A DNA stretch of 23,327 bases from a virus. The first letter of the stretch is position 1, and each line of letters begins with the position of its first letter. A model generated the notes under the pieces. That model saw nothing but the letters and a program-made list of their open reading frames with translations. It was not told the origin of the DNA and did not search any database. The stretch is taken from the IMG/VR virus record IMGVR_UViG_3300029705_000088; one strand, given 5' to 3'. The position numbers and the translations under genes are program-made. This document shows, one piece after another, positions 1,875-15,059 of this stretch.

Positions 1875-2240
1875 ATGAGCTGTGTTTACTATGCGATGAA
1901 CGAAAAAACGGTGCTTGCTTTACAAGAAAAAAAGCGCGGCACCTACGTCATTAAAATCGGCGAAACAAATAACGTTATCCGAAGAGCAAGAGAGGTATTT
2001 TACAGAGACAAAGACCTAATCATGAAAAATTGGGAGTGCGACGATAATATCGCATATCGCAGAGTAATTGAGGCTAACGCGCATTTGATTCTTGAAAACA
2101 ACTTTGATGTTGAACGTAAAGGGAATGACCATTATATAGTCAAGAACAAAGCAGAGCTTGCGAGAATTGAAAAAGCGCTTGATACACTGATTGAAAAAGC
2201 AATCGCGCAGGCGGATGCGGTTGATAGAATCCCTATGTGA
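1875..2240 (+). CDS. T5orf172/GIY-YIG-superfamily domain protein (121 aa)
   Basis: RBS aagaggtaaaataaaATG. The motif VYYAMNEK...YVIKIGETNNVIRRAREVF resembles the GIY...KIGxT..RR signature of T5orf172 (PF10544-like). It is a paralogue of 10750..11097. Confidence 0.7.
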   Translation: MSCVYYAMNEKTVLALQEKKRGTYVIKIGETNNVIRRAREVFYRDKDLIMKNWECDDNIAYRRVIEANAHLILENNFDVERKGNDHYIVKNKAELARIEKALDTLIEKAIAQADAVDRIPM

Positions 2241-4065: not shown

Positions 4066-4160
4066 TCAATTTCAATTTTTGTTTCCATTTTTTGGATTCA
4101 TTTTTTCATTTCAATTCATATTTTGTTTTCATTTTATTTACAAATTTTGACTTGACTTTT

Positions 4161-4196
4161 GGGCCGGCCGCCCGCGCTCCAAGCGGCCGGTTTTTG
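4161..4196. terminator. GC-rich hairpin (gggccggccgcccgcgctccaagcggccgg) plus a T-run. It is a homologue of the 531-560 hairpin and is followed by iteron copies.
   Basis: ccggccgc/gcggccgg stem. gaacaaattgtgaa copies lie at 4195-4252. Confidence 0.6.
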
Positions 4197-4308
4197 AACA
4201 AATTGTGAATTTCAATACTTTTTTGTAAGCATTTTGTAAACAAATTGTGAAGGGAAATTTTCCCAAAATGTTTGTGCAATTTGACGAAAGATTTTTTTCA
4301 AAAACCTA

Positions 4309-4675: not shown

Positions 4676-5380
4676 ATGAACACAGAAAAGATTGACCGCC
4701 GCAGACATTACATTATCGTGCTTGACACGGAAACCGCAAACACCTTCCGCGATGAAAGAGGACAGCTTGACACAAGTAGTACACTTGTGTATGACCTTGG
4801 GTGGGCGGTAACTGATAAGCATGGAAACATCTACCGCAAAAAGAGTTTTGTAAATTCTGATATTTTCTTCCATGAAGCTGAACTGATGAAGTCGGCATAC
4901 TACGCAAATAAAATCCCGCAGTATCTCGCAGACATTGAAGCGGGTAGGCGCATTGTGGCTAATACCTATCAAATGCGCTCGGCTCTGCTGAATGATATCG
5001 CAGATTTCGCAGTTGATACAATTTGCGCGCATAACGCCCGTTTTGACTACAACAGCCTAAACAGCACAGAGCGCTGGACTACAAAAAGCAAGTACCGCTA
5101 TTTTCTCCCTTATGGAATTACAATTTGGGACAGTATGAAGATGGCGCAAAGTGTAATCGGAAAGATGCCCACCTACCGCGCATTTTGTGAAGAACATGGT
5201 TATCTGACAAAAACTGGCAGACTTTCCATGACAGCGGAAAATCTTTACAGATTCATTTCCCGCAATAATGATTTTGTTGAAAATCATACAGGGCTTGAAG
5301 ATGTGGAAATTGAAGCGCAGATAATGGCGTACTGTTTCAGACAACACAAGGCAATGCAGAAAGAGTTATGGGGGAATTAA
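4676..5380 (+). CDS. DnaQ-like DEDDh 3'-5' exonuclease (234 aa)
   Basis: Exo I is IIVLDTETAN, Exo II is AHNARFDYNSL, and Exo III is HTGLEDVEIEAQ. The leader hairpin ccccc gataca ggggg lies at 4641-4656. Confidence 0.75.
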   Translation: MNTEKIDRRRHYIIVLDTETANTFRDERGQLDTSSTLVYDLGWAVTDKHGNIYRKKSFVNSDIFFHEAELMKSAYYANKIPQYLADIEAGRRIVANTYQMRSALLNDIADFAVDTICAHNARFDYNSLNSTERWTTKSKYRYFLPYGITIWDSMKMAQSVIGKMPTYRAFCEEHGYLTKTGRLSMTAENLYRFISRNNDFVENHTGLEDVEIEAQIMAYCFRQHKAMQKELWGN

Positions 5381-5429
5381 TCCCCCATGACTACCGCAAA
5401 AAAAACTTTAAGAAATTTCGCAAAACCCC

Positions 5430-5458
5430 TTGACAAAACCGCAAAAGTATGATATAAT
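5430..5458 (+). promoter_or_regulatory. Sigma70-type promoter driving the tRNA-like gene
   Basis: ttgaca at 5430-5435 and tataat at 5453-5458. Confidence 0.8.
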
Positions 5459-5498
5459 ATATATACAGAAGAGAGGAACAAATCCTCCCCGATAATAT

Positions 5499-5605
5499 GG
5501 CAGTGAGATAGAAGCGGCTCTATTTCCATAAAGATGGCTTGAGATACAACAAATGGAAACGTTCGCCATTGGAAAACGTAGGTTCAACTCCTACCACTGC
5601 CTCCA
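5499..5605 (+). tRNA. tRNA-like gene, non-canonical length (107 nt). It has a 7-bp acceptor stem, a canonical T-arm and 3' CCA, but the middle part does not fold into a standard anticodon arm.
   Basis: ggcagtg at 5499-5505 pairs with cactgcc at 5595-5601. The T-arm gtagg-ttcaact-cctac is at 5578-5594, the discriminator t is at 5602, and CCA is at 5603-5605. A D-arm-like atag aagcggct ctat is present. I could not place a 7-nt anticodon loop with U33, nor find a CUA anticodon. Confidence 0.45.
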
Positions 5606-5636
5606 AAAAATTTTTCAAAAACTTTTGCAAAACCCC

Positions 5637-5665
5637 TTGACAAATCGCTCAAAGTATGATATAAT
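5637..5665 (+). promoter_or_regulatory. Sigma70-type promoter (class-A copy)
   Basis: ttgaca at 5637-5642 and tataat at 5660-5665. Confidence 0.85.
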
Positions 5666-5749
5666 ATATATACCGAAGCAAGAGGGCACGACCTCCAATC
5701 GGTAAAATAAAAATAATGGGTAGCGACCTACGCTGAAAGGATTGATACC

Positions 5750-6139
5750 ATGGCTACTACTAACTCTACTTCCAAGAAGCTCACTAAGCGCGACCACTTC
5801 AACACCCTGCTCCAGCTCCCCGAAGTTGCCGCAAATCCCGCACTCGTTGATTTCATCAACAACGAACTTGACCTGCTGGCTCGCAAGAACAACAGCGACA
5901 ACAAGAAGCTCACTGAAAAGGACATCGCAAATCAGGGGCTTAAGGCGGCGATTCTTGAATTCGCAACCGCGAGCGGCGAACAGCACACTGTTACCGACTT
6001 CATCAAGAACGTGCCTGCGTGCGCTGGACTTTCTCCGCAGAAGATTACCGCACTGGTTCGCCAGATGGTAGAAGATGGCAAGCTTGAAAAGGTAATCGTA
6101 AAGCGCGTATCTTACTTCCGCATTCCGGAGGGGGTTTAA
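5750..6139 (+). CDS. Hypothetical protein (129 aa), cassette A gene 1, with a possible C-terminal winged helix
   Basis: An 80-nt structured leader ends ...gctgaaaggattgataccATG. Codon usage is rich in C-ending codons. It is a paralogue of 9851..10249. Confidence 0.8.
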   Translation: MATTNSTSKKLTKRDHFNTLLQLPEVAANPALVDFINNELDLLARKNNSDNKKLTEKDIANQGLKAAILEFATASGEQHTVTDFIKNVPACAGLSPQKITALVRQMVEDGKLEKVIVKRVSYFRIPEGV

Positions 6140-6170
6140 TCCCCCTCCCCCAAGAGGGGGGACGTAATCC

Positions 6171-6527
6171 ATGAGCGAACAGGAAAAAGCAATGCGGCGG
6201 CTCGGCTTTACAGATGAAGAAATCGCCGACGTAATGGACGCAGATAAGCGCATTGACAAGGGCGAAAAACTATTTGAGCAGACCGCCGAAGAAAAGAACG
6301 CAAGTAAAGAATTGCGGCGAGCACCGCGCAAAGTCGTTGACGCATACGGCAAAGCAAGCACCAAGGAACGCAAAAGCGACAACGACAAGCAAGCACTAAT
6401 CAAAGGCATTGAAATGGCAATTTTTGACAAAGTGGAAAATCTTACCATTATCAATCCCGAACGTGAAATGGAGTTTCTTTACAATGGTAGAAAATTCAAG
6501 TTGACTCTATCTGCTCCCCGAAAGTAA
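6171..6527 (+). CDS. Hypothetical protein (118 aa), cassette A gene 2
   Basis: ATG at 6171 after the stacked hairpins gaggggg/ccccctc and ccccc aagag ggggg. It is a paralogue of 10285..10692. Confidence 0.75.
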   Translation: MSEQEKAMRRLGFTDEEIADVMDADKRIDKGEKLFEQTAEEKNASKELRRAPRKVVDAYGKASTKERKSDNDKQALIKGIEMAIFDKVENLTIINPEREMEFLYNGRKFKLTLSAPRK

Positions 6528-6537
6528 ATATTTTCCA

Positions 6538-6570
6538 AAATGCATATTACAAATGTAATATGCATTTTTG
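6538..6570. promoter_or_regulatory. Perfect AT-rich palindrome (aaaatgcatattaca aa tgtaatatgcatttt), a candidate operator or terminator
   Basis: The 15-bp arms are exact reverse complements. Confidence 0.5.
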
Positions 6571-6589
6571 TTTATTTTGACGAAAATTT

Positions 6590-6790
6590 CCAGTTCACAA
6601 ATTGTTTACAAAATATACTTGATTTGTTCAAACGCGCGTCGCCGATGGTGGCGCGCGTTTTTTTTGTCAATAGGTAATGTATACAAATTTTCAGAAAATT
6701 TTTGGGCGTTTTTAGTCAATTCATACAAATCCCGCAATTATGAACATTTTGTAAACAATAAAGAAAACCTATTGACTTTTTTATTATAAT
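6590..6790. repeat. About 190-bp intergenic repeat element, copy 1 (tttacaaaatatacttgatttgttcaaac, a GC hairpin with T-run terminator at 6631-6668, then ...caaatcccgcaattatgaacattttgtaaa...)
   Basis: Close similarity to 11150..11340. The GC hairpin aaacgcgcg...cgcgcgttttttttt is visible. Confidence 0.8.
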
Positions 6791-6800
6791 ATGATATAAT
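6772..6800 (+). promoter_or_regulatory. Sigma70-type promoter
   Basis: ttgact at 6772-6777 and tgatataat ending at 6800, 17 bp apart. Confidence 0.8.
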
Positions 6801-6845
6801 ATATATACAGAAAACAAAGAGCCAACAGGCAAAGGAGATAAAACA

Positions 6846-7277
6846 ATGAAAAATATTTACGCTGTTAAGAATTACGTCCGCTTTGATGATGAATGGGAAG
6901 AAATTTTTGTGTGGGATTACAATTATGAGTATCTCACCCCCGAAGAAGCAAAAACCTTTGAAGATACTTTCCGCACGACCTGCCGCACGTTTGAGGAACT
7001 GCGCGAAGAGGTAGACAGATTCCCCGGTATCAAAGAAAATTATACCTTTTTCCGGCGCAGTCCTTACATCCGTGTGCAGGGTTCTGATTGGGATAGCTAT
7101 GGCAAATATTATGATGAAAAGCATTTCAAGAAGCCTATTAGCTTCAAGAAGGTCTGTAAAAGAGTTAATAACCTTTCCATTAATGATTTGATGAAAGTAT
7201 TAACTGCAGAAGATTTTGCAGACTGGTGGAAAGACCACGCAGGCGAAACGCAGTGCCCGTTCAAAAAGAATTCATAA
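6846..7277 (+). CDS. Hypothetical protein (143 aa)
   Basis: RBS aaaggagataaaacaATG. Confidence 0.8.
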   Translation: MKNIYAVKNYVRFDDEWEEIFVWDYNYEYLTPEEAKTFEDTFRTTCRTFEELREEVDRFPGIKENYTFFRRSPYIRVQGSDWDSYGKYYDEKHFKKPISFKKVCKRVNNLSINDLMKVLTAEDFADWWKDHAGETQCPFKKNS

Positions 7278-7296
7278 AATAAATACAAATTATACA

Positions 7297-7325
7297 TTGA
7301 CTTTCTCTCTTGGATGTGGTATAAT
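7297..7325 (+). promoter_or_regulatory. Sigma70-type promoter
   Basis: ttgact at 7297-7302 and tgtggtataat ending at 7325. Confidence 0.8.
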
Positions 7326-7367
7326 ATATATACCCTCCAAGAGAGAGGGTAGAAAGAGGTAAAACAA

Positions 7368-7604
7368 ATGAGAGTTGAGGACATGAGAAATAAGGACAAA
7401 GAGGTAACAATTAAAGACATTAAAGTCGGTGAATGCTTCATTGACTGTGATGGCGATTTAAATATGAAAATAAAAAATATTGAATCTTTTGATTATGAAT
7501 CTATTAATGCTGTAGTGCTTTTAACTGGTCAACTGTGGGCTTGTGATGAAGATAGCCCTATAACTCCAGTAAAAACGCACATTGTAATTGAATCGGAGGG
7601 ATAA
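7368..7604 (+). CDS. Hypothetical protein (78 aa)
   Basis: Leader hairpin ccctc caagaga gaggg at 7333-7349. RBS agaaagaggtaaaacaaATG. Confidence 0.7.
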   Translation: MRVEDMRNKDKEVTIKDIKVGECFIDCDGDLNMKIKNIESFDYESINAVVLLTGQLWACDEDSPITPVKTHIVIESEG

Positions 7605-7610
7605 AAAAAA

Positions 7611-8084
7611 ATGAATATTTTAATTTTTGCAATCGCTACTGTAATTAACGTATCACTTTCCACTATCCGCGCCATTACCACCATTAAAAGCGGTAAATGG
7701 CTGTCCGCTGTGATGAATGCGGTTTGTTATGGTTTCTATCCTCTGATTGTCATGCTGACCGCGCAAGGCACCGTAGGCATTTTGGTGAATATGGCAATTA
7801 CTGCCATCGCAAATTTCATCTGCGTATGGATTATTAAGTTTGTAGAGGAAAAGGCGCGTAAAGATAAACTCTGGAAGATTGAAGCATCTGTGTGTGAGCC
7901 TTACACCGAAAGCCTTTATAATGACTTAAGAGAAAATGGAATTTCTTGTAATTATATTCCCAACATTGGTAAATATACCATTTTCAACATTTACGCAGAA
8001 ACGCAAGCGCAAAGCCTTATTGTAAAAGGACTGCTTGAAGCCAACAAAGCAAAGTATTTTGTGAGCGAAACAAAAATTCTTTAA
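7611..8084 (+). CDS. Membrane protein, UPF0316/DUF2179-like (157 aa). It has N-terminal TM helices and a soluble C-terminal domain.
   Basis: RBS ggagggataaaaaaaaATG. The hydrophobic N-terminus carries a TIR motif, and the layout resembles the UPF0316 (YebE-type) family. This family assignment is recalled from memory and is not a verified similarity. Confidence 0.6.
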   Translation: MNILIFAIATVINVSLSTIRAITTIKSGKWLSAVMNAVCYGFYPLIVMLTAQGTVGILVNMAITAIANFICVWIIKFVEEKARKDKLWKIEASVCEPYTESLYNDLRENGISCNYIPNIGKYTIFNIYAETQAQSLIVKGLLEANKAKYFVSETKIL

Positions 8085-8103
8085 AAAACTTTCGCAAAAC
8101 CTA

Positions 8104-8132
8104 TTGACAAATTCAAAAAAGTGTGGTATAAT
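8104..8132 (+). promoter_or_regulatory. Sigma70-type promoter with TTTCGCAAAACC element
   Basis: ttgaca at 8104-8109 and tgtggtataat at 8122-8132. Confidence 0.8.
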
Positions 8133-8174
8133 ATATACATCCCCGATACAGGGGATAGAAAGGAATAAAACAAA

Positions 8175-8498
8175 ATGAAACTTGGTATTATTTTAGCAAA
8201 ACGTAAAATGGATGAAGAAGATACTGGACATCGCATCATTAAAATTGAAACAAACAATAATGATTTCAAACAGATTATTGATAAATCAATATATATAAAT
8301 AAACATTATAAAGAAACAGATGTTGTGACACGTAGAAAAACTTTTGATAAATTGTGTGATTTACTGGATGAAATTGTTAAACCATATTGTAAAGCAGATG
8401 AAGCAGTTATTTTTGCTTGTACAGCAGATGGTTATGCATTTATTTATGATGATGAAGATTTGGTAAATGAAACAATGAAATATATTTTTAATGAATAA
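8175..8498 (+). CDS. Hypothetical protein (107 aa)
   Basis: Leader hairpin atcccc gataca ggggat at 8139-8156. RBS aaaggaataaaacaaaATG. Confidence 0.7.
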   Translation: MKLGIILAKRKMDEEDTGHRIIKIETNNNDFKQIIDKSIYINKHYKETDVVTRRKTFDKLCDLLDEIVKPYCKADEAVIFACTADGYAFIYDDEDLVNETMKYIFNE

Positions 8499-8515
8499 AA
8501 ATTTTACTAAATCCC

Positions 8516-8544
8516 TTGACAAATAAGCAAAAGTGTGGTATAAT
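8516..8544 (+). promoter_or_regulatory. Sigma70-type promoter
   Basis: ttgaca at 8516-8521 and tgtggtataat ending at 8544. Confidence 0.8.
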
Positions 8545-8591
8545 AATAGTACCCCAATACAGGGGGCACTAAAAGAGAGAGGTAAAATAAA

Positions 8592-8849
8592 ATGACAAGA
8601 ATTGTAAAGCAAATGAAAATGGCAAAAATTTATGTTCCCGCTTGTTATGTTGATGGTGGACAAGGCTCTCGTGGCAACTGGACAAAAGAGACAATTTTTT
8701 ATACGGGTGCTTACACCAGCGAAACAGATATGCAGGAAAAATTTATTAAAGCAAAAGAAGAATGGGATAAAAAGAAAAAAGAATCGTGGGATACTTATTA
8801 TACAGAAGTAAAACTTATAGATTGGTGGGAAAATGTAGAAATTTTGTAA
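8592..8849 (+). CDS. Hypothetical protein (85 aa)
   Basis: Leader hairpin cccc aatacag ggggg. RBS agagaggtaaaataaaATG. Confidence 0.7.
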   Translation: MTRIVKQMKMAKIYVPACYVDGGQGSRGNWTKETIFYTGAYTSETDMQEKFIKAKEEWDKKKKESWDTYYTEVKLIDWWENVEIL

Positions 8850-8855
8850 AACCCC

Positions 8856-8884
8856 TTGACAAATCCGAAGAAATGTGATATAAT
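8856..8884 (+). promoter_or_regulatory. Sigma70-type promoter overlapping the end of the upstream CDS
   Basis: ttgaca at 8856-8861 and tgtgatataat ending at 8884. Confidence 0.8.
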
Positions 8885-8926
8885 AATAGTACCCCCAATA
8901 AAGGGGGGAGAAAGAGGTAAAATAAA

Positions 8927-9160
8927 ATGAAAGTTGCTGTTACACTTTATCGCACGATTGAAATGGATGTAAATGAAGAAGTTTTTGAAAGACTTCATGA
9001 AATCCATAAAGACCCTACCACTTTTGGAGAAGATGAAGATTATTCCGAAGCAAAAGAAATTATCACAAACAGACTGCTGGCACGCTGTGAACTTCATAAT
9101 GGTGAAGAAATTATCGGCGTGTATGCGGCGGAAGATGATATTCCGATTCTTGAATTTTAA
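8927..9160 (+). CDS. Hypothetical acidic small protein (77 aa)
   Basis: Leader hairpin ccccc aataaa gggggg. RBS agaaagaggtaaaataaaATG. Confidence 0.7.
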   Translation: MKVAVTLYRTIEMDVNEEVFERLHEIHKDPTTFGEDEDYSEAKEIITNRLLARCELHNGEEIIGVYAAEDDIPILEF

Positions 9161-9163
9161 TAA

Positions 9164-9200
9164 GGAGAGGGCGCAAGCCCCTCTCTTTCTTTTACTTTTG
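9164..9200 (+). terminator. Intrinsic terminator (ggagaggg cgcaag cccctctc followed by tttcttttactttt)
   Basis: GC stem followed by a T-run. Confidence 0.75.
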
Positions 9201-9472
9201 GCATTCATAATTTATTTACAAATTATTTATAAAAAACACTTGACTTTTGAGTCGCCCGCGGCCGGAGGTCACGGGCGAAATTTTGTCAAGAGATATCGTA
9301 TAAAAAAATTGTAAACATTTTATTAACAATCAAGTGAATTAGCCGTTTTCCCGTAATAAAAAATTAACAAATGAACATAGACTCGTTCACATATTATACC
9401 ATTACCAAAAATTGACAATCTGACTTGTTCTTGGATATTGAAAAAATTTTTTGAGAAATTTTGAAAAACCTC

Positions 9473-9501
9473 TTGACAAAAACGTGATTGTGTGGTATAA
9501 T
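9473..9501 (+). promoter_or_regulatory. Sigma70-type promoter with no ORF downstream (first of three tandem promoters)
   Basis: ttgaca at 9473-9478 and tgtggtataat at 9491-9501. Confidence 0.75.
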
Positions 9502-9579
9502 ATATATGTACCAAACAAAAGGATGCGCGGGGACGCCGAAAGCCACTCAAAAAAATTTGAAAAACTTTTCAAAAACCCC

Positions 9580-9608
9580 TTGACAAATCGCTCAAAGTAT
9601 GGTATAAT
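9580..9608 (+). promoter_or_regulatory. Sigma70-type promoter (class-A copy) driving an ORF-less structured transcript
   Basis: ttgaca at 9580-9585 and tataat at 9603-9608. Confidence 0.8.
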
Positions 9609-9614
9609 ATATAT

Positions 9615-9720
9615 GTCAGGGGCGAGGGTGAGTAAAACCTCGTAAAAAATCTCCTCATCAAGTGAAGTCCAAAATGCGATAAATTGACTTCAAATCTTGA
9701 TAGTATCGCAAAAAATTTTT
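9615..9720 (+). ncRNA. Candidate small non-coding RNA (about 105 nt): a 5' hairpin plus an H-type pseudoknot, ending in AAAAAATTTTT
   Basis: There is no ORF beyond a 10-codon one. The 5' hairpin is cgagg...cctcg (9623-9642). The pseudoknot has S1 at 9657-9669 paired with 9686-9701, and S2 tgcgata (9675-9681) paired with tatcgca (9704-9710), interleaved. Confidence 0.4.
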
Positions 9721-9741
9721 GAAAAACTTTTCAAAAACCCC

Positions 9742-9770
9742 TTGACAAATACCATAAAGTATGGTATAAT
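9742..9770 (+). promoter_or_regulatory. Sigma70-type promoter for cassette B
   Basis: ttgaca at 9742-9747 and tataat at 9765-9770. Confidence 0.8.
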
Positions 9771-9850
9771 ATATATACCGGGTGAGGGAAACCTACCACG
9801 GCAAACAAATTAAAAGGTTGGCAACCTAAACAGCTGAAAGGATTGATACC

Positions 9851-10249
9851 ATGGCTAACACTAATTCTACTCTCAACGCTACCGCAAAGAAGCTCACCAA
9901 GCGTGACCACTTCAACGCCCTCCTCGCTATCCCCTCTGTAGCATCTAACCCCACGCTCGTTGAATTCATTGAAAATGAGCTTGACCTACTGGCTCGTAAG
10001 AACGCTAAGCCGTCTGGCAAGCAGATGGAAAAGAAGGAAGCAAACGATGCGCTGAAGCAGGCAATGCTTGACTACCTCGCAAATGATGGCGGTCAGCACA
10101 CCGTTACTGACTTCATCAAGAATGTTCCCGAATGCGCTGGACTGTCCCAGCAGAGAATCACTGCGCTTGTCCGTCAGCTGGTAGAAGATGGCAAGATGGA
10201 AAAGGTGATTGAAAAGCGCGTTTCCTACTTCAAGCTGGCAGAGGTTTAA
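9851..10249 (+). CDS. Hypothetical protein (132 aa), cassette B gene 1, paralogue of 5750..6139
   Basis: The same structured leader ending gctgaaaggattgataccATG. About 60% identity to the cassette A protein by eye. C-ending codon bias. Confidence 0.8.
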   Translation: MANTNSTLNATAKKLTKRDHFNALLAIPSVASNPTLVEFIENELDLLARKNAKPSGKQMEKKEANDALKQAMLDYLANDGGQHTVTDFIKNVPECAGLSQQRITALVRQLVEDGKMEKVIEKRVSYFKLAEV

Positions 10250-10284
10250 TCCTCTGCCACGCCTAACCAAAAGAGGTGATGAAG

Positions 10285-10692
10285 ATGGAACTGACCCGAG
10301 CCGACAAAGCGCAAGTCAAGCGAATTCAAGAGGGCTTGCGCTGTACCGAAGAAGAAGCTCTTGAGGTTTTGTCCTATGACAAGGAAGTTGAGAAGGCTTC
10401 CGCTAATGACAGGCTGGCGTACGACCTTGACAAGGAGACAGAGAAGGAAGCGATGCGTATGGCTAACTGCCGCGACCGCAAGCCTACTGTTTACAATTTC
10501 TCCCAGCGTGAGCGCAAGGCAAATCCCACAAAGGGCGGAATAATCGCAGAATTGGCGGAGTTTTTGACAAAAAACAGTCAGTTTGCGACCGAAGATGTGG
10601 AAATTACCAACAAAGAACGGCAAATTGCGTTCAAAATTGGTGAAGATGCCTTTGAATTGACGCTTGTTCAGAAGCGAAAGCCCAAAAAGTAA
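10285..10692 (+). CDS. Hypothetical protein (about 136 aa), cassette B gene 2, paralogue of 6171..6527
   Basis: RBS aagagg. Candidate ATGs lie at 10279 and 10285; the track uses GTG at 10276. Confidence 0.7.
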   Translation: MELTRADKAQVKRIQEGLRCTEEEALEVLSYDKEVEKASANDRLAYDLDKETEKEAMRMANCRDRKPTVYNFSQRERKANPTKGGIIAELAEFLTKNSQFATEDVEITNKERQIAFKIGEDAFELTLVQKRKPKK

Positions 10693-10694
10693 AG

Positions 10695-10724
10695 AAAAGT
10701 GGGAATTTTTCCCACTTTTCACTT
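10695..10724 (+). terminator. Intrinsic terminator (aaaagtggga atttt tcccactttt)
   Basis: 10-bp stem followed by a T-run. Confidence 0.7.
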
Positions 10725-10749
10725 AAATTTTAGTCAAAAAGATGCAAAA

Positions 10750-11097
10750 ATGGCAGAAAAAGAGTTTCTTTATGTGGGTTTTTACCACGATACCGACAAA
10801 AATTTTGTTCTAAAGATTGGAACAACTAACGACCTAAAGCGCAGACAGGCAGAGCACACGCGCAATTATAGGAAAAGCCCTGAACACACAATGCCGCCAG
10901 ATGGCAAATTTACCTATTTATGGAAGCTGCCCCTTTCAAAATATAATACTCTGCGTTTTGAGGACAGAAACCGCCAAAAGTGGCAGGAAATGGGAATTGG
11001 TGAATATGTGCGGAACGACCGCTTTGTTCTCCATGAAATTCCACCACAGGTAGAAATTACCATCCGCAAAACTTATACAATCCCTCTACTGATGTAG
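10750..11097 (+). CDS. T5orf172/GIY-YIG-superfamily protein (115 aa), with no promoter of its own, inserted into copy B of the duplicated cassette
   Basis: FLYVGFYHDTDKNFVLKIGTTNDLKRRQAEH matches the GIY..YIG..R..H pattern and is paralogous to 1875..2240. The gene ends with TAG inside a terminator hairpin. Confidence 0.7.
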   Translation: MAEKEFLYVGFYHDTDKNFVLKIGTTNDLKRRQAEHTRNYRKSPEHTMPPDGKFTYLWKLPLSKYNTLRFEDRNRQKWQEMGIGEYVRNDRFVLHEIPPQVEITIRKTYTIPLLM

Positions 11098-11112
11098 AGG
11101 GATTTTCTTTTG
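11082..11112 (+). terminator. Intrinsic terminator (ccctctac tgat gtagaggg plus a T-rich tract) that contains the TAG stop
   Basis: Perfect 8-bp stem followed by attttcttttg. Confidence 0.65.
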
Positions 11113-11149
11113 TGCATAATGACGAAAATGCTGTGTTCATAATTTATTT

Positions 11150-11340
11150 ACAAAATATACTTGATTTGTTCAAACGCCCGCGACCGGAGGCCACGGGCGT
11201 TATTTTGTCAAGTGGTAATCTATACAAATTTTCAGAAATTTTTTTAACATTTTTGTACAAACCGCACAAATCCCGCAATTATGAACATTTTGTAAATAAA
11301 CAAGAATATCTATTGACATTTTTATAAAAATATGATATAA
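11150..11340. repeat. About 190-bp intergenic repeat element, copy 2 (homologue of 6590..6790)
   Basis: The same tttacaaaatatacttgatttgttcaaacgc, a GC hairpin (gcccgcgaccggaggccacgggcg), and ...caaatcccgcaattatgaacattttgtaaa. Confidence 0.8.
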
Positions 11341-11341
11341 T
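11313..11341 (+). promoter_or_regulatory. Sigma70-type promoter
   Basis: ttgaca at 11313-11318 and tgatataat ending at 11341. Confidence 0.8.
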
Positions 11342-11381
11342 ATATATACAGTAAAGAACCAACAGAAAGAGAGCAAATAAA

Positions 11382-11579
11382 ATGGATATGTGGATGAGCG
11401 ACCTTTTAGAAGCTACCGCAAGAGTAAAAGTACATAAAGGAAAAAATTTCTGTATCAAGTCTGCCCTTCCTGCGGTTGATGGCATTGTATTTGAAACTAC
11501 TTACTTCACTTACATTAAATGGTATCGCGCAGATGGACGCATTGAAGAACATTCTAAAGACGCATGGAGGAATAAATAA
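11382..11579 (+). CDS. Hypothetical protein (65 aa)
   Basis: RBS agagagcaaataaaATG. Confidence 0.65.
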   Translation: MDMWMSDLLEATARVKVHKGKNFCIKSALPAVDGIVFETTYFTYIKWYRADGRIEEHSKDAWRNK

Positions 11580-11580
11580 A

Positions 11581-11808
11581 ATGAATACACTTGTAATCAG
11601 CGAAAAGTTGATTGAATACTTTGAGCAGGAAGTAAAAGACGCAGAAAGAGCGCTTGAACGCAATCTTTACACGCCCCTTGAAATCGTAGATAACGCAAAA
11701 CAGCGAATGCTTGGAGCGACTACTCTGTGCCAGTATCTTGGTATTGAATATTTGTTCCTTGAAGCAAACTATGAAGCATACACAAAAAAACTTGAAAAAC
11801 TTTTATAA
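11581..11808 (+). CDS. Hypothetical protein (75 aa)
   Basis: ATG at 11581, in frame within the 11476..11808 ORF. RBS aggaataaataaaATG, with the stop and start adjacent. Confidence 0.65.
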   Translation: MNTLVISEKLIEYFEQEVKDAERALERNLYTPLEIVDNAKQRMLGATTLCQYLGIEYLFLEANYEAYTKKLEKLL

Positions 11809-11814
11809 AACCCC

Positions 11815-11843
11815 TTGACAAATCGCGCAAAGTATGGTATAAT
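11815..11843 (+). promoter_or_regulatory. Sigma70-type promoter (class-A copy)
   Basis: ttgaca at 11815-11820 and tataat at 11838-11843. Confidence 0.85.
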
Positions 11844-11887
11844 AATAGTACCCCCCAGAGAGGGGGGGAGAAAGAGAGTAAAATAAA

Positions 11888-12295
11888 ATGGAAAAAGTAA
11901 TGTATTTTATCGCAGAAGATGGCACGCAGTTTGAAGATGAATTTGACTGCGTACAGTATGAAGAAGAACTCCACATTAAGCAGGTGTTTGAACCTTTCTC
12001 CTGTTATGATATCAATGGACATCTTCTTGACACTAATGACGAGCATTTTGAATCCGATGATGTATATTATATTCTTGTAAAAGAAGATAATTACGAAGAT
12101 GGAAGTTATATGGAGCTGGATGATTTTATTTTTGATGGTGAATTACCTGCTCTTAGCCATGTTTTCAAAGATACTGATACCACGTTGATTTATTTCAATC
12201 GTAATTCTGACACTTGGGAAAACTGGCACGAAGAATTCAACAGGCTTACTGAAATGATGAAAATGTTTCAACTGTTTGCGGGGAAGGGCGAGTAA
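11888..12295 (+). CDS. Very acidic hypothetical protein (135 aa), a candidate DNA-mimic or anti-restriction type
   Basis: Leader hairpin cccccc agaga ggggggg. D and E residues heavily outnumber K and R residues. Confidence 0.75.
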   Translation: MEKVMYFIAEDGTQFEDEFDCVQYEEELHIKQVFEPFSCYDINGHLLDTNDEHFESDDVYYILVKEDNYEDGSYMELDDFIFDGELPALSHVFKDTDTTLIYFNRNSDTWENWHEEFNRLTEMMKMFQLFAGKGE

Positions 12296-12319
12296 TCGCC
12301 CTTCATGGAGGTAAAGAAA

Positions 12320-12475
12320 ATGACTTGTAAAGAATGCGGCTACTGTTGGAAAGAAGAGTGCGAGAAATACGCCCATTGCCACTTTGAAGGCCCGGAAGGT
12401 TGGGCACCTTGTGAGCAGGAAGAAGAGTACGAAGAAGAAGAAGATGAGGAGGATGATGAAGATGAAGCCGAATGA
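12320..12475 (+). CDS. Cys-rich small protein with a poly-acidic tail (51 aa), absent from the ORF track because it is under 60 aa
   Basis: Strong RBS ggaggtaaagaaaATG. Product is MTCKECGYCWKEECEKYAHCHFEGPEGWAPCEQEEEYEEEEDEEDDEDEAE. TGA at 12473-12475. Confidence 0.55.
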   Translation: MTCKECGYCWKEECEKYAHCHFEGPEGWAPCEQEEEYEEEEDEEDDEDEAE

Positions 12476-12731
12476 AGAAACTTTACTTGATTTAATGAAC
12501 GAATACAATGCTTTGAAACAGAAGCTTGCTAACGTTGAAAGTGCTATTAAATCACATCAAAAACAGGGCGCTAAAGAGCAGTTACGAACAGCTTTTGCTA
12601 TTTTGGAAAAAATTAACAATGACAACATTTTTGGTGATGACGATTATTATTCTGATGATTTGAATGAATATATCAATTTAACAACCATTGTTAATTGCCT
12701 TGGTTCATTTATTGAAGAAGTGGTCAAATGA
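12456..12731 (+). CDS. Hypothetical coiled-coil protein (about 91 aa); the start is uncertain (12444 to 12462) and it overlaps the previous gene in another frame
   Basis: RBS gaggagga lies upstream of a cluster of ATGs. The ORF runs 12384..12731. Confidence 0.6.
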   Translation: MKMKPNEETLLDLMNEYNALKQKLANVESAIKSHQKQGAKEQLRTAFAILEKINNDNIFGDDDYYSDDLNEYINLTTIVNCLGSFIEEVVK

Positions 12732-13210
12732 CCACTTCTTTTTCGTTATTTTATACAAAAATAATTTGTTTACAAATTATGATAGATTTGTTCACATTTG
12801 CGCCGCCCGATTGCGCTCGCGCAGGGCGGGATTTCCATTTTTTACCATATTTACAAAATTTTGCGGCGATTTCCAGGATTTTCCAGTCCAGCCAGATTTT
12901 CCCATATTCTACACCTGTCAAGCGGTCCGGGCGCGGGCGCTGCGGACCGAGTTCCCGTTCGGACCCCCATATGCGAATTTTTTGCTACTTCTAGCGACCC
13001 TCAGCCTATATGCGCATTTTCCTATAATTCTAGTACCCCAGCCAGCCGACCGGAATTGTAAAATTTTTGTAAAAATTTTTGTAAAATTTTTATGAACGCG
13101 CGATTTCTCCAGAGATACGCCAGTGCTTATCTATTGAGAGCTACGGCTTAAATAAAGACCCTCTCCCTCACATTTACTCAAAAATTTTTTTGCGTGGCTT
13201 AAAATGCCGA
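12732..13210. repeat. About 480-bp non-coding island with a GC-rich core (12800-13060), several repeat families, and the boundary between the two promoter classes
   Basis: Tandem repeats of about 42 bp lie at 12965-13006 and 13007-13048. A triple tgtaaaattttt repeat lies at 13056-13095. Hairpins include cggtccg..cggaccg, and atttcc(a)g direct repeats are present. Confidence 0.7.
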
Positions 13211-13213
13211 AAT

Positions 13214-13242
13214 TTGACTTTTTTAAAAATTTATGATATAAT
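13214..13242 (+). promoter_or_regulatory. Sigma70-type promoter, class B (ttgactttttt aaaaatt tatgatataat)
   Basis: ttgact at 13214-13219 and tataat at 13237-13242. The promoter plus leader is about 60 bp and nearly identical to 16085-16145. Confidence 0.8.
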
Positions 13243-13274
13243 ATATATACAAAATAAAAAAAGGAGATAAAATT

Positions 13275-13721
13275 ATGAATTACAATTCTAATGACATTCT
13301 TAAGATGATTCAGGAGGGCAAATCTGTAGATGATATTGCCAAGGAATTCACCGCCGCACTGAACGAGGCAAAAAAGATTGACGAAGCCAAGAGAGCAGAG
13401 GCTAAGGAAGAAGAGGCTAGAAAGAAGGTCCAGGAGAGGGCAGATAAGATTGCGGACATGGGCAAGATGAAGGATGCTATCGCAGCCTACATTAAGCGCT
13501 GGTACCCCAACCTTGCCGCCCAGTATAAGGATATTGATATCACCGCAGAAGACCTTGTTGATTTGGTTGATGAAACTGTTGCGGAAATGCGCGAAGCATT
13601 CTCTATGTTTGGTAATTTTGCTCATATGCTGAAGCCTGGCAATGCTACCCTCTCAATTAAGACTGATAAGTCTAATTTGGATAATGTTTTTGATACTTTC
13701 TTTAAGAACAATGGTATTTAA
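13275..13721 (+). CDS. Hypothetical protein (148 aa) with high-expression-like codon usage
   Basis: Strong RBS aaaggagataaaattATG. C/G-ending codons are enriched relative to the neighbouring genes. Confidence 0.85.
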   Translation: MNYNSNDILKMIQEGKSVDDIAKEFTAALNEAKKIDEAKRAEAKEEEARKKVQERADKIADMGKMKDAIAAYIKRWYPNLAAQYKDIDITAEDLVDLVDETVAEMREAFSMFGNFAHMLKPGNATLSIKTDKSNLDNVFDTFFKNNGI

Positions 13722-13727
13722 TATTTT

Positions 13728-13754
13728 AAGCCACGATTTTCGTGGCTTTTTTAT
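13728..13754 (+). terminator. Intrinsic terminator (aagccacg atttt cgtggctttttt)
   Basis: 8-bp stem followed by a T-run. Confidence 0.8.
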
Positions 13755-13832
13755 TTGATGTGAAAAGATGTTCGTAAAAATGTTTTGAGAGGGCTACAGA
13801 TTGCGAAAATTGGCAAATTGAACTATAAAATG

Positions 13833-13876
13833 AGAAAAAGAGAGACACAAGAAAATGTCTCTCTTTATTTTTTATT
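13833..13876. terminator. Bidirectional intrinsic terminator (agagagaca caagaaaa tgtctctct), flanked by an A-run and a T-run, between convergent transcription units
   Basis: 9-bp stem with aaaaag on the 5' side and ttatttttt on the 3' side. Confidence 0.7.
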
Positions 13877-14098
13877 AAGAAAGGATGAGGGATGACGATG
13901 ACGAGGGAAAAGTGATGAGTGTCTAGTGGAGCCGAACGGCACGACACCTCTCCAATTTTCGCAATTTTTATTACTTATTACTTTATTTACTTATTATTAT
14001 CTATATAATTATTATCTATTATCTATACAGTTGTTATCCATTATCAACCTATTACTTACTACCTACTACCTATTATCTATATTGTTACCTACCTACTA

Positions 14099-14299
14099 TC
14101 ACAACACCCAAATAACTCCCTGCCGCAACAACTTCCTTCTCTCCTTGCCAATCTCCTTAAACCTCTTCCTCTCCTCCGCCTCAAACCCTCTCAACAACCA
14201 ACATCCAAGAGCAGAAGAAAAAGAAACTCTTTTCAACACATACCTAACAACTGCGCCTAGCACCAAGCCAACTACTACACCTGCCGCGACCCCTATCAT
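14099..14299 (-). CDS. Small membrane protein (66 aa), the last gene of the minus-strand operon
   Basis: Its start overlaps the upstream stop as ATGA. It has an N-terminal hydrophobic helix and a basic C-terminus. Confidence 0.6.
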   Translation of the reverse strand: MIGVAAGVVVGLVLGAVVRYVLKRVSFSSALGCWLLRGFEAEERKRFKEIGKERRKLLRQGVIWVL

Positions 14300-14607
14300 A
14301 ACTTAACCTCTTTCAATTCCGCAAAAAACTTATCAACTACCGTACTATATTGACTAAAATAATTATCTTTTTCCTTTTCTTTCTCTTTCTTTAACTTTTC
14401 ATATACCCAACATTTATTGCTCCCAAACTCTTTAACTTTCATATCTAATCCTACTCTACCAACAACTTTACCTTTAAAAACTAACCACCTATCATCATCT
14501 TCAATAATAAAATAATTCTCTTTATCCTTATTCTTCTCATTCAAAAAATAATTATCTCTATCAATTAAATAAACATTTTTATAACCATACGTACCACAAT
14601 GCCTCAT
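14296..14607 (-). CDS. Hypothetical protein (103 aa)
   Basis: RBS aaaggtg precedes the ATG. The stop is TGA. Confidence 0.65.
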   Translation of the reverse strand: MRHCGTYGYKNVYLIDRDNYFLNEKNKDKENYFIIEDDDRWLVFKGKVVGRVGLDMKVKEFGSNKCWVYEKLKKEKEKEKDNYFSQYSTVVDKFFAELKEVKL

Positions 14608-14648
14608 GAGTTTTCAATTCACCTTTCTGAAAGGGTCCCTTTTTCATT

Positions 14649-14930
14649 TCATTTTTCAAATACATTCTATAAAATAGAATCCGCATCATCAAAATTAAAA
14701 TTCATACCCTATAAAAAAGGATTATCCTCTCTTTCATTTTTATTTTCAAATATATTATAGCATATTTTTTTATCTTTATCAACTCTTCTTTTATTTTCTA
14801 AAACAAAGAAAATTTTTCCAGTTGTTTCATCTATATACAATTCTTTTACTTTTCTATGAGGCTGCTTCGCAACCTCTGATAAACCTGAATGATAATCATT
14901 TTCACTTAATTTTACAAAACCGACTTCCAT
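14649..14930 (-). CDS. Hypothetical protein (93 aa) containing two in-frame TAG codons, consistent with amber being read as sense
   Basis: Strong RBS aaaaaggagaattcaaaATG. The frame is open from 14930 to TGA at 14649-14651, apart from TAG at 14709-14711 and 14667-14669. The track truncates this ORF at the first TAG. Confidence 0.55.
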
Positions 14931-14995
14931 TTTGAATTCTCCTTTTTCACTTCAGTTTTCCGCCCCTATCAACAGAAAAAAATTTTCTATAAGAA

Positions 14996-15033
14996 ATTTA
15001 TGTTCCAAGCGATAGCTGGAACATAAATTTCGC
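14996..15033. promoter_or_regulatory. Perfect palindrome (aaatttatgttcca agcgatagct tggaacataaattt) upstream of the minus-strand gene, a candidate operator
   Basis: 14-bp exact inverted arms. Confidence 0.5.
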
Positions 15034-15059
15034 TTTGTTAATTATTTAGTTTTTAGTAT

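Follow-up and report, generated by a model that had tools for sequence, protein, structure and literature searches.

Introduction

The T5orf172 domain family, its nuclease nature, and its presence in phages are already known. The closest described systems are the T5orf172 homing endonucleases of ICP1, T5-like, and other phages (PMC10448857), and ICP1 Odn/Gp88, the one T5orf172 protein tested, whose nuclease activity requires a conserved Glu (PMC8263062). Here, we analyze a stand-alone T5orf172 gene in a 23,327-nucleotide stretch of viral DNA, IMG/VR record IMGVR_UViG_3300029705_000088, the whole of which is called the window. The gene, referred to as the focal gene, encodes a protein of 115 amino acids (aa) and follows two genes, g1B and g2B, in what we call cassette B; a second cassette, A, has g1A and g2A. 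The focal protein shares PF10544, a GIY-YIG subfamily, and the conserved Arg and Glu with the described T5orf172 proteins. Like the homing endonucleases, it is phage-encoded, its gene occupies an intergenic slot between operons, and the gene is present in some relatives and absent from others. In contrast, each of the homing endonucleases combines several domains in a longer protein and has a Zn-finger (CapR, DUF723, DUF4397) or RepA_N domain that binds DNA; their genes are multi-copy within a genome, often lie by essential genes, and mark recombination boundaries. The focal protein is a bare 115-aa domain, and its gene is single-copy, at a fixed locus, in an early region of small genes.

A second comparison is with I-TevI and the SegA-G proteins of T4. 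[quoted passage not shown] The focal protein resembles I-TevI and the Seg proteins in having a GIY-YIG-type core of ~90–100 aa with the residue order Tyr…Arg…Glu…Asn. As with seg genes, its gene is intergenic, has no strong promoter of its own, and is preceded by a hairpin. The Seg proteins and I-TevI differ in having a linker, NUMOD/helix-turn-helix (HTH) DNA-binding domains, and long targets, and the Tyr of YIG is a Lys in the focal protein.

Degradation of host DNA is carried out in T4 by endonuclease II (DenA), a GIY-YIG nuclease of small size (cited in PMC1564403). The focal phage differs in that no protective DNA modification was identified for it, and detectable EndoII homology was likewise not found for the focal protein. 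[quoted passage not shown] Finally, morons are accessory inter-operon genes with their own promoter and terminator. The focal gene is moron-like in being dispensable, in having its own terminator, and in occupying an inter-operon slot; it differs in having no promoter of its own, in its composition, which is not foreign, and in its long residence.

A preliminary description of the window pointed out that only one of the two cassettes has the gene, which is correct, and took the gene for a homing-endonuclease-like mobile element that had been inserted in a single copy of a duplicated cassette. We favor a different reading, to which we give a probability of roughly 0.6: the focal gene encodes a resident accessory nuclease, stand-alone, selected yet non-essential, that closes the g1B-g2B early operon. 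What is new here is the definition of a stand-alone T5orf172 subfamily, its fixed operon context, and its evolutionary behavior.

Gene Order in Related Phages

Three sets of loci were compared. Set 1 consists of 32 viral contigs (about 20–200 kb) found via the focal protein; in 31 of them, the T5orf172 gene lies directly 3′ of a detectable g2 homologue. Set 2 avoids the ascertainment bias of such a search. It consists of 79 loci found via the neighboring gene, which encodes a 234-aa DEDD-exonuclease-like protein, and came from an alignment-based scan; single-protein scans with g2B and with the exonuclease gave only 3 loci and 1 locus, respectively. The T5orf172 gene is carried by 43 of the 79 loci, and in 40 of these 43 it begins 15–93 bp after a detected g2. 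The exceptions are L059, L061, and L083: the L083 g2 is divergent and was missed by tblastn, and in L059 the order is g1, an unrelated 79-aa open reading frame (ORF), and then the T5orf172 gene. Set 3 consists of loci from metagenome-assembled genomes, mostly binned as Clostridia, Eubacteriales, or Oscillospiraceae. All 19 show the order g1-g2-T5orf172, two with a divergent g2.

To summarize, in ~90 related loci overall the gap between g2 and the T5orf172 gene is 9–93 bp, and in every genome examined a T5orf172 gene of the focal type is found at a single locus. Members of the family come from uncultivated phages in gut and other metagenomes, with contigs reaching about 200 kb; the hosts are probably Clostridia. 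Among cultured phages, only Enterococcus phages (about 140 kb) have even the exonuclease gene, at 40% identity. A nucleotide search of 50,697 phage records with cassette B gave no match, and a protein search gave one weak match, in an 8.5-kb faecal fragment. Thus, the gene is carried by no cultured relative.

In a tree of 77 non-redundant g2 proteins, the A-type and B-type proteins form separate deep clades, and a third clade comes from single-cassette phages. The B clade and the third clade usually have a T5orf172 gene downstream; the clade of the window's g2A nearly always does not. When cassettes are typed by best tblastn match, 29 A-type cassettes have no T5orf172 gene downstream, and the 18 “A-type” cassettes that do have one all belong to the third clade, that of the single-cassette phages. 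After B-type cassettes comes a T5orf172 gene (59 cases), a member of a second family of 136–211 aa (14), or nothing (13). The close relatives L116 and L118 have the window's layout, i.e., A without and B with the gene. Among the relatives sampled, the gene never entered the paralogous A-type cassette. The presence/absence difference between A and B in the window is therefore old and fixed rather than a recent insertion.

Descent and Selection

Pairwise identities were compared in 38 non-redundant genomes for the T5orf172 protein (T5), the exonuclease (EXO), and g2. Spearman rho is 0.64 for T5-EXO, 0.69 for T5-g2, and 0.68 for EXO-g2, and the mean identities are 68.5% (T5), 70.5% (EXO), and 57.8% (g2). 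In none of the pairs is a near-identical T5orf172 gene found in diverged flanks, the maximal excess of T5 identity over EXO identity being ~18 points. In the two closest relatives, the T5orf172 protein is 97% and 88% identical in aa sequence to the focal protein. The ratio of nonsynonymous to synonymous substitution rates (dN/dS) of the gene in these comparisons is 0.07–0.39, and its dS, 0.17–0.27, is comparable to that of the flanks. All T5orf172 copies examined are intact and retain the catalytic-type residues, and no pseudogene is among them. The gene has diverged alongside its neighbors under purifying selection.

In the close relatives, the gene sits inside a single uninterrupted block of 91–94% nucleotide identity that corresponds to window positions 9710–11388. 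A recombination boundary at the gene was considered for these relatives and rejected, as the homologous block has no break. A foreign composition was likewise rejected: the GC content of the gene is 42%, inside the 36–51% range of the neighboring genes. Together with the gene order, these comparisons show the focal gene to be an old, vertically inherited last gene of the g1-g2-T5orf172 arrangement.

Two observations on the close relatives and on the phage population are added here. In L118, substitutions are clustered at L118:8170-8225, which encodes T5orf172 residues 59–74 (HKELTWLSTLRYEKKNR vs. KLPLSKYNTLRFEDRNR), and lift dN/dS to 0.35–0.39; the patch may be a small conversion tract. A g2B protein identical to that of the window is found on contigs from at least 24 samples. 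Two of these contigs were retrieved; both match the window without a difference over 6.4 kb and have the T5orf172 gene. A further 22 are reported with the same neighboring proteins. With a 100% match of the two contigs (the longest 186.5 kb; window 9710–15059), the phage appears widespread and clonal.

Empty Sites and the Question of Homing

The preliminary description proposed comparing relatives for presence or absence of the gene at exactly this junction, and the comparison found clean empty sites in related phages. In L120–L123, g2B has 63–67% identity, its C-terminal peptide is identical, and the T5orf172 gene is absent. In these loci, a terminator comes after the g2B stop, and beyond it lies a hairpin/promoter region homologous to the one found after the T5orf172 terminator of the sister lineage L001. 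In L043, L091, L110, and L125–L129, the slot is empty or holds unrelated small genes. A tblastn search for a T5orf172 relic in cassette A and in the empty sites found none, its best match having an E value of 0.36. From the lineages with a clean empty site or with a different gene in the slot, the gene is seen to be dispensable.

The slot has other occupants as well. In the sister clade locus L066, it holds a 136-aa protein (L066:13095-13505), followed by a truncated ORF with a NUMOD4 motif (13710–14081) that looks like a homing endonuclease fragment. L086 (L086:13428-14063) encodes a distant T5orf172-like protein fused to a sigma-70 region-4 HTH. The second family mentioned above, here called type 2, is linked to the T5orf172 family by profile-profile comparison alone (probability 77%, E 2e-5, 82 columns), and it keeps the K-[IV]-G-T, E, and NDRF motifs. 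Pfam does not recognize it, and neither a hidden Markov model (HMM) of the close family nor single-sequence hhalign gave a link for the 136-aa protein of L066. Homology of the two families is thus probable, not proven.

Alleles with and without the gene whose flanks are homologous on either side, e.g., L001 versus L122 and L123, are what an active free-standing homing endonuclease would leave. In such a scheme, the focal protein would act during mixed infection and cut T5orf172-less alleles within the conserved 3′ end of g2B or close to it, and its gene would be copied, along with its own terminator, by repair. T5orf172 homing endonucleases are documented in phages (PMC10448857), the fold of the focal protein is that of a nuclease whose active-site pattern is intact, and changes of state are scattered across the g2B tree. 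Furthermore, the slot after g2B also houses nuclease-type genes, namely the type 2 T5orf172-like genes and the NUMOD4 fragment of L066, and the missing promoter, weak ribosome-binding site (RBS), and upstream hairpin recall the regulation of T4 seg/mob genes (PMC2988022).

However, most of the comparative evidence runs the other way, and we consider homing unlikely. The gene-less lineages are nested among carriers on the g2 tree, so that losses from an ancestor with the gene are a more parsimonious reading than invasions. The gene co-diverges with its flanks, with no excess similarity and with dS like that of the flanks, and no mosaic boundary is seen at the gene within the block of 91–94% identity. 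Each genome has it at one locus, the paralogous A cassette was not colonized in any relative, and pseudogenes, relics, or degenerate copies were not found. The focal protein also has no DNA-binding module. Zn-fingers are present in 87% of T5orf172 homing endonucleases (PMC10448857), as are NUMOD/HTH modules in I-TevI and the Seg proteins (PMC2988022). The mobile insertion put forward in the preliminary description thus gives way to an ancient A/B difference.

Domain Family, Fold, and Conserved Residues

The focal protein matches the Pfam T5orf172 profile (PF10544) with 23.5 bits (gathering cut-off 20, E 8.4e-5), the match spanning only profile positions 2–44 of 101. Among 59 family members, 58 match PF10544 at E <= 0.01. 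For the canonical GIY-YIG profile (PF01541), the focal protein scores 15 bits, under the 22.6 cut-off, and only 16 of the 59 members match it, even at E <= 0.01. The Pfam search found no domain other than T5orf172 in the protein. The predicted model has high confidence and a GIY-YIG-like fold (β-β-α-β-α) over the whole domain. The GIY-YIG/T5orf172 signature that was first read from the N-terminus therefore holds for T5orf172 and for the fold, and does not hold for PF01541.

In a set of 27 sequences, very distant members among them, residues K22, G24, T25, Y40, E71, and N89-D90-R91-F92 are invariant, and R32 and Y12 nearly so. In the close family, Y8, Y12, R31, R32, E35, and H36 are invariant too. 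The second motif of the family is K-I-G instead of Y-I-G. The order Y8…K22-I-G…R32…H36/Y40…E71…N89 parallels the motifs of I-TevI, in which we take Y6, R27, E75, and N90 to be the positional counterparts of Y8 or Y12, R32, E71, and N89.

Clustered at 90% identity, the homologues make up more than 1,261 clusters, with lengths of 112–120 aa in almost every case. Clustering at 50% identity leaves just 117 representatives out of 1.84 billion, and hardly any of them exceed 167 aa. The shortness of these representatives indicates a compact, stand-alone family, as opposed to truncated multi-domain endonucleases. A deposited orthologue with an automatically assigned name, “Endonuclease [Siphoviridae sp. 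ctTnV63]” (A0A8S5NXC7), has 114 aa, 60% identity, and a TM-score of 0.95. When the family profile was searched against PDB sequences, no relevant match came up; PADLOC gave zero matches, and PHROGs gave sub-threshold matches only.

Layout of the Two Cassettes and Expression Signals

The features of the window are collected in Table 1. The preliminary description of the sequence is accurate. In cassette B, the g2B stop codon (10690–10692) is followed by a hairpin, the T5orf172 ORF, the ORF's terminator hairpin, and the landmark atgacgaaaat. In cassette A, the g2A stop (6525–6527) is followed by a hairpin (6537–6568) and the ttttgacgaaaat landmark with the repeat (6566–6817), with no ORF in between.

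Table 1. Positions in the window of the two cassettes, the focal gene, and associated features.
Feature	Position	Strand	Description
Second T5orf172 gene	1875–2240	+	121 aa; T5orf172 match of 21.0 bits; of an unrelated lineage, not a close paralogue of the focal gene
Cassette A	5750–6568	+	g1A 5750–6139, g2A 6171–6527, terminator hairpin 6537–6568; T5orf172 gene and relic absent
Three tandem promoters of cassette B	9473–9501, 9580–9608, 9742–9770	+	TTGACA-17-TATAAT, 12/12, extended -10 TG
g1B	9851–10249	+	132 aa, first gene of cassette B; paralogue of g1A
g2B	10285–10692	+	135 aa from ATG 10285; 138 aa from GTG 10276
Hairpin between g2B and T5orf172 gene	10694–10720	+	-17 kcal/mol; directly after g2B stop
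Shine-Dalgarno-like stretch, weak	10737–10744	+	aaaagatg; aaaaggtg in close relatives
T5orf172 gene (focal)	10750–11097	+	115 aa, protein begins MAEKEFLYVGFYHDTDKNFVLKIGTTNDLKRRQAEH; stand-alone T5orf172 (GIY-YIG superfamily) domain
Terminator hairpin of T5orf172 gene	11079–11104	+	-17.7 kcal/mol, then good U-run UUUUCUUUUGU
Intergenic repeat	11108–11358	.	shared with 6566–6817; landmark tgacgaaaat, second hairpin, promoter of the next operon 11313–11341

Contrary to the preliminary description, the two cassettes are not otherwise parallel. The g1 proteins are 67% identical, and g2A and g2B are alignable over just 62 C-terminal residues, with 34% identity. The repeats following the cassettes (190–250 bp) are 77–84% identical. 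They are built of promoter-region modules that belong to dispersed families with 3–5 copies in the window; the recurrence of these modules indicates shared regulatory sequence rather than a young duplication. Cassettes A and B are two ancient cassette types, not the products of a recent duplication. In a MAFFT alignment, GAAATGGAGTTTCTTTAC of g2A (6466–6483) was paired with the 5′ end of the T5orf172 gene. A relic or junction reading of this stretch was rejected, as it aligns as protein with the C-terminus of g2B; no relic is detectable.

The C-terminus of g1B is weakly winged-helix-like, with sub-threshold matches to Mnd1-HTH, Rpc34, and MarR. For g2B, the AlphaFold2 model has a mean predicted local distance difference test (pLDDT) score of 79 and a predicted TM-score (pTM) of 0.37, and a fold search with this low-confidence model gave no meaningful match. 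The last ~30 codons of g2B (EITNKERQIAFKIGEDAFELTLVQKRKPK) are far better conserved than the rest, at the nucleotide level too; this is seen on comparing window positions 10600–10692 with L043:17080-17169 and L122:3290-3393, phages without the T5orf172 gene being included. The g1-g2 pair is multi-copy in these phages, e.g., three g1 genes in L043 and two g2 genes in L083, and the g2 family is very abundant (>3,276 clusters).

The ATG at 10750 is backed as the start codon by the more than 1,200 homologues of 112–120 aa. The scan found no sigma-70-like site on the + strand between 10693 and 10750, in line with the early remark that the gene has no promoter of its own. The RBS was also described as weak, and it is: the stretch in the window is aaaaagatgcaaaaATG, as against aaaaaggtgcaaaaATG in close relatives and aaaaaggtg in the closest ones, so the window's RBS is a weakened form of a modest site. 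The hairpin at 10694–10720 has a short U-run (UUUUCACUU) that is part-paired to the upstream A-run, and it is probably a leaky or bidirectional terminator. Counterpart hairpins that differ in sequence are found at L001, L002, L003, L006, and L021. Comparison of the relatives' junctions shows no hairpin ahead of the gene in L004 and L005, and in some relatives without it the gap between g2 and the T5orf172 gene is just 9–30 bp. At the other end of the gene, the stop codon is TAG (11095–11097), lying, as first described, inside the gene's own terminator hairpin, in the 3′ arm; almost all other credible genes end in TAA.

The three cassette B promoters are the only plausible source of transcripts for the gene. 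The absence of a promoter, the weak RBS, and the upstream hairpin with its poor U-tract make low-level production via read-through probable.

Proposed Function and Remaining Alternatives

We propose the following. Transcription from the three strong promoters of cassette B would read through the hairpin at 10694–10720, giving small amounts of the T5orf172 protein early in infection. Its probable activity is metal-dependent, either as an endonuclease or as a nickase on DNA. Having no DNA-binding domain of its own, the protein would have a low intrinsic specificity, act as an oligomer, or use its extra C-terminal β-strands (residues 85–112). The substrate would be non-phage DNA, e.g., the host chromosome or a rival element, so that the gene confers an accessory benefit and is not essential. 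Non-self DNA is favored as the substrate by analogy with T4 endonuclease II and ICP1 Odn.

Several points weigh against this proposal. That the protein is an active nuclease we infer from its conserved residues. The correspondence of these residues to the catalytic residues of I-TevI is by order, spacing, and secondary structure, not by residue-level superposition, and the Tyr of the second motif is replaced by Lys, as is usual in T5orf172 proteins. Read-through transcription is predicted from the layout of promoters and hairpins. No means of phage self-protection, either a DNA modification or an inhibitor, was identified, and a role in degrading host DNA would require one. Finally, patchy presence at one junction, bracketing terminators, and weak expression signals also fit a free-standing homing endonuclease.

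The lack of a DNA-binding domain, together with the consistent position of the T5orf172 gene beside g2 and downstream of g1, has suggested another possibility, a split targeted nuclease. The products of g1B and/or g2B, co-transcribed with it, would guide the bare domain in trans to specific DNA. Divergence of T5 and g2 is correlated (rho 0.69), but the correlation of g2 and the exonuclease is equally high (0.68), which bespeaks shared history and not specific co-evolution; furthermore, the g2B model has low confidence and its fold match is uninformative. We consider this arrangement quite improbable. If true, g1-g2-T5orf172 would be a three-part unit, the split counterpart of the fused DNA-binding-plus-T5orf172 homing endonucleases, and the slot after g2B, filled by type 1 (focal-type), by type 2 with or without an HTH, or by none, would be an exchangeable effector position.

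Similarly doubtful is a protein without catalytic function that binds DNA or regulates, and that would control early genes jointly with g1 (winged helix) and g2: T5orf172 was originally described as a DNA-binding domain of Bro-type proteins, the nearest viral structural matches are Bro-N/T5orf172 proteins annotated as DNA-binding, the g1-g2-T5orf172 order is strict over deep divergence, and the distant homologue in L086 is fused to an HTH, but the invariant Arg, Glu, and Asn are the expected catalytic residues of the superfamily, Glu-dependent nuclease activity of a T5orf172 protein is demonstrated in ICP1 Odn (PMC8263062), and g1-g2 pairs do without the gene in A-type cassettes and in lineages lacking it.

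Other Features of the Window

The window has a second T5orf172 gene (Table 1), which the preliminary description called a paralogue of the focal gene. The domain assignment stands. The relationship is not close, as only the KIG-T…RR motif, about 17–24 aa, is common to the two proteins. The second gene has just 6 homologous clusters among 5.8 billion proteins, and roughly 150 related loci contain none. Its occurrence is far more sporadic than that of the focal gene, and of the two it looks more like a recent acquisition.

In intergenic regions upstream of promoters, ACAAATTGTGAAC / TTGTTCA arrays phased at 11 bp are found at 423–708, 2281–2380, 4096–4260, and 6564–6616; these may be operator or DNA-bending arrays. 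The segment from 5300 to 12000 has at least 10 perfect TTGACA-17-TGnTATAAT promoters in 6.7 kb, some tandem, each serving an operon of 1–3 genes ended by a hairpin terminator. With its dense short operons, the left half of the window resembles a host-takeover early region, such as that of SPO1-type phages. Conserved CCCC…GGGG hairpins lie right after four promoters (8138–8157, 8547–8571, 8892–8909, and 11851–11870), i.e., at predicted transcript 5′ ends; the scan listed them as minus-strand terminator-like sites. The composition of the window breaks at ~13000, with a GC content of 38% to the left and 31% to the right. The GC content of genes at third codon positions is 44–63% to the left and 24–29% to the right, and the family of promoter-region repeats differs too.

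Implications

The g1-g2 pair is conserved in an abundant group of gut phages and is predicted to be highly expressed early. The analysis also defines a candidate for study, a predicted nuclease of 115 aa with residues E71, R32, and N89 and with natural filled and empty alleles. At present, a T5orf172 gene in a phage is taken almost by default for a homing endonuclease. The family described here shows that an early operon can keep a bare T5orf172 domain as an accessory gene that is stable and inherited vertically. Finding a gene in just one of two paralogous cassettes is therefore, by itself, no evidence of mobility.

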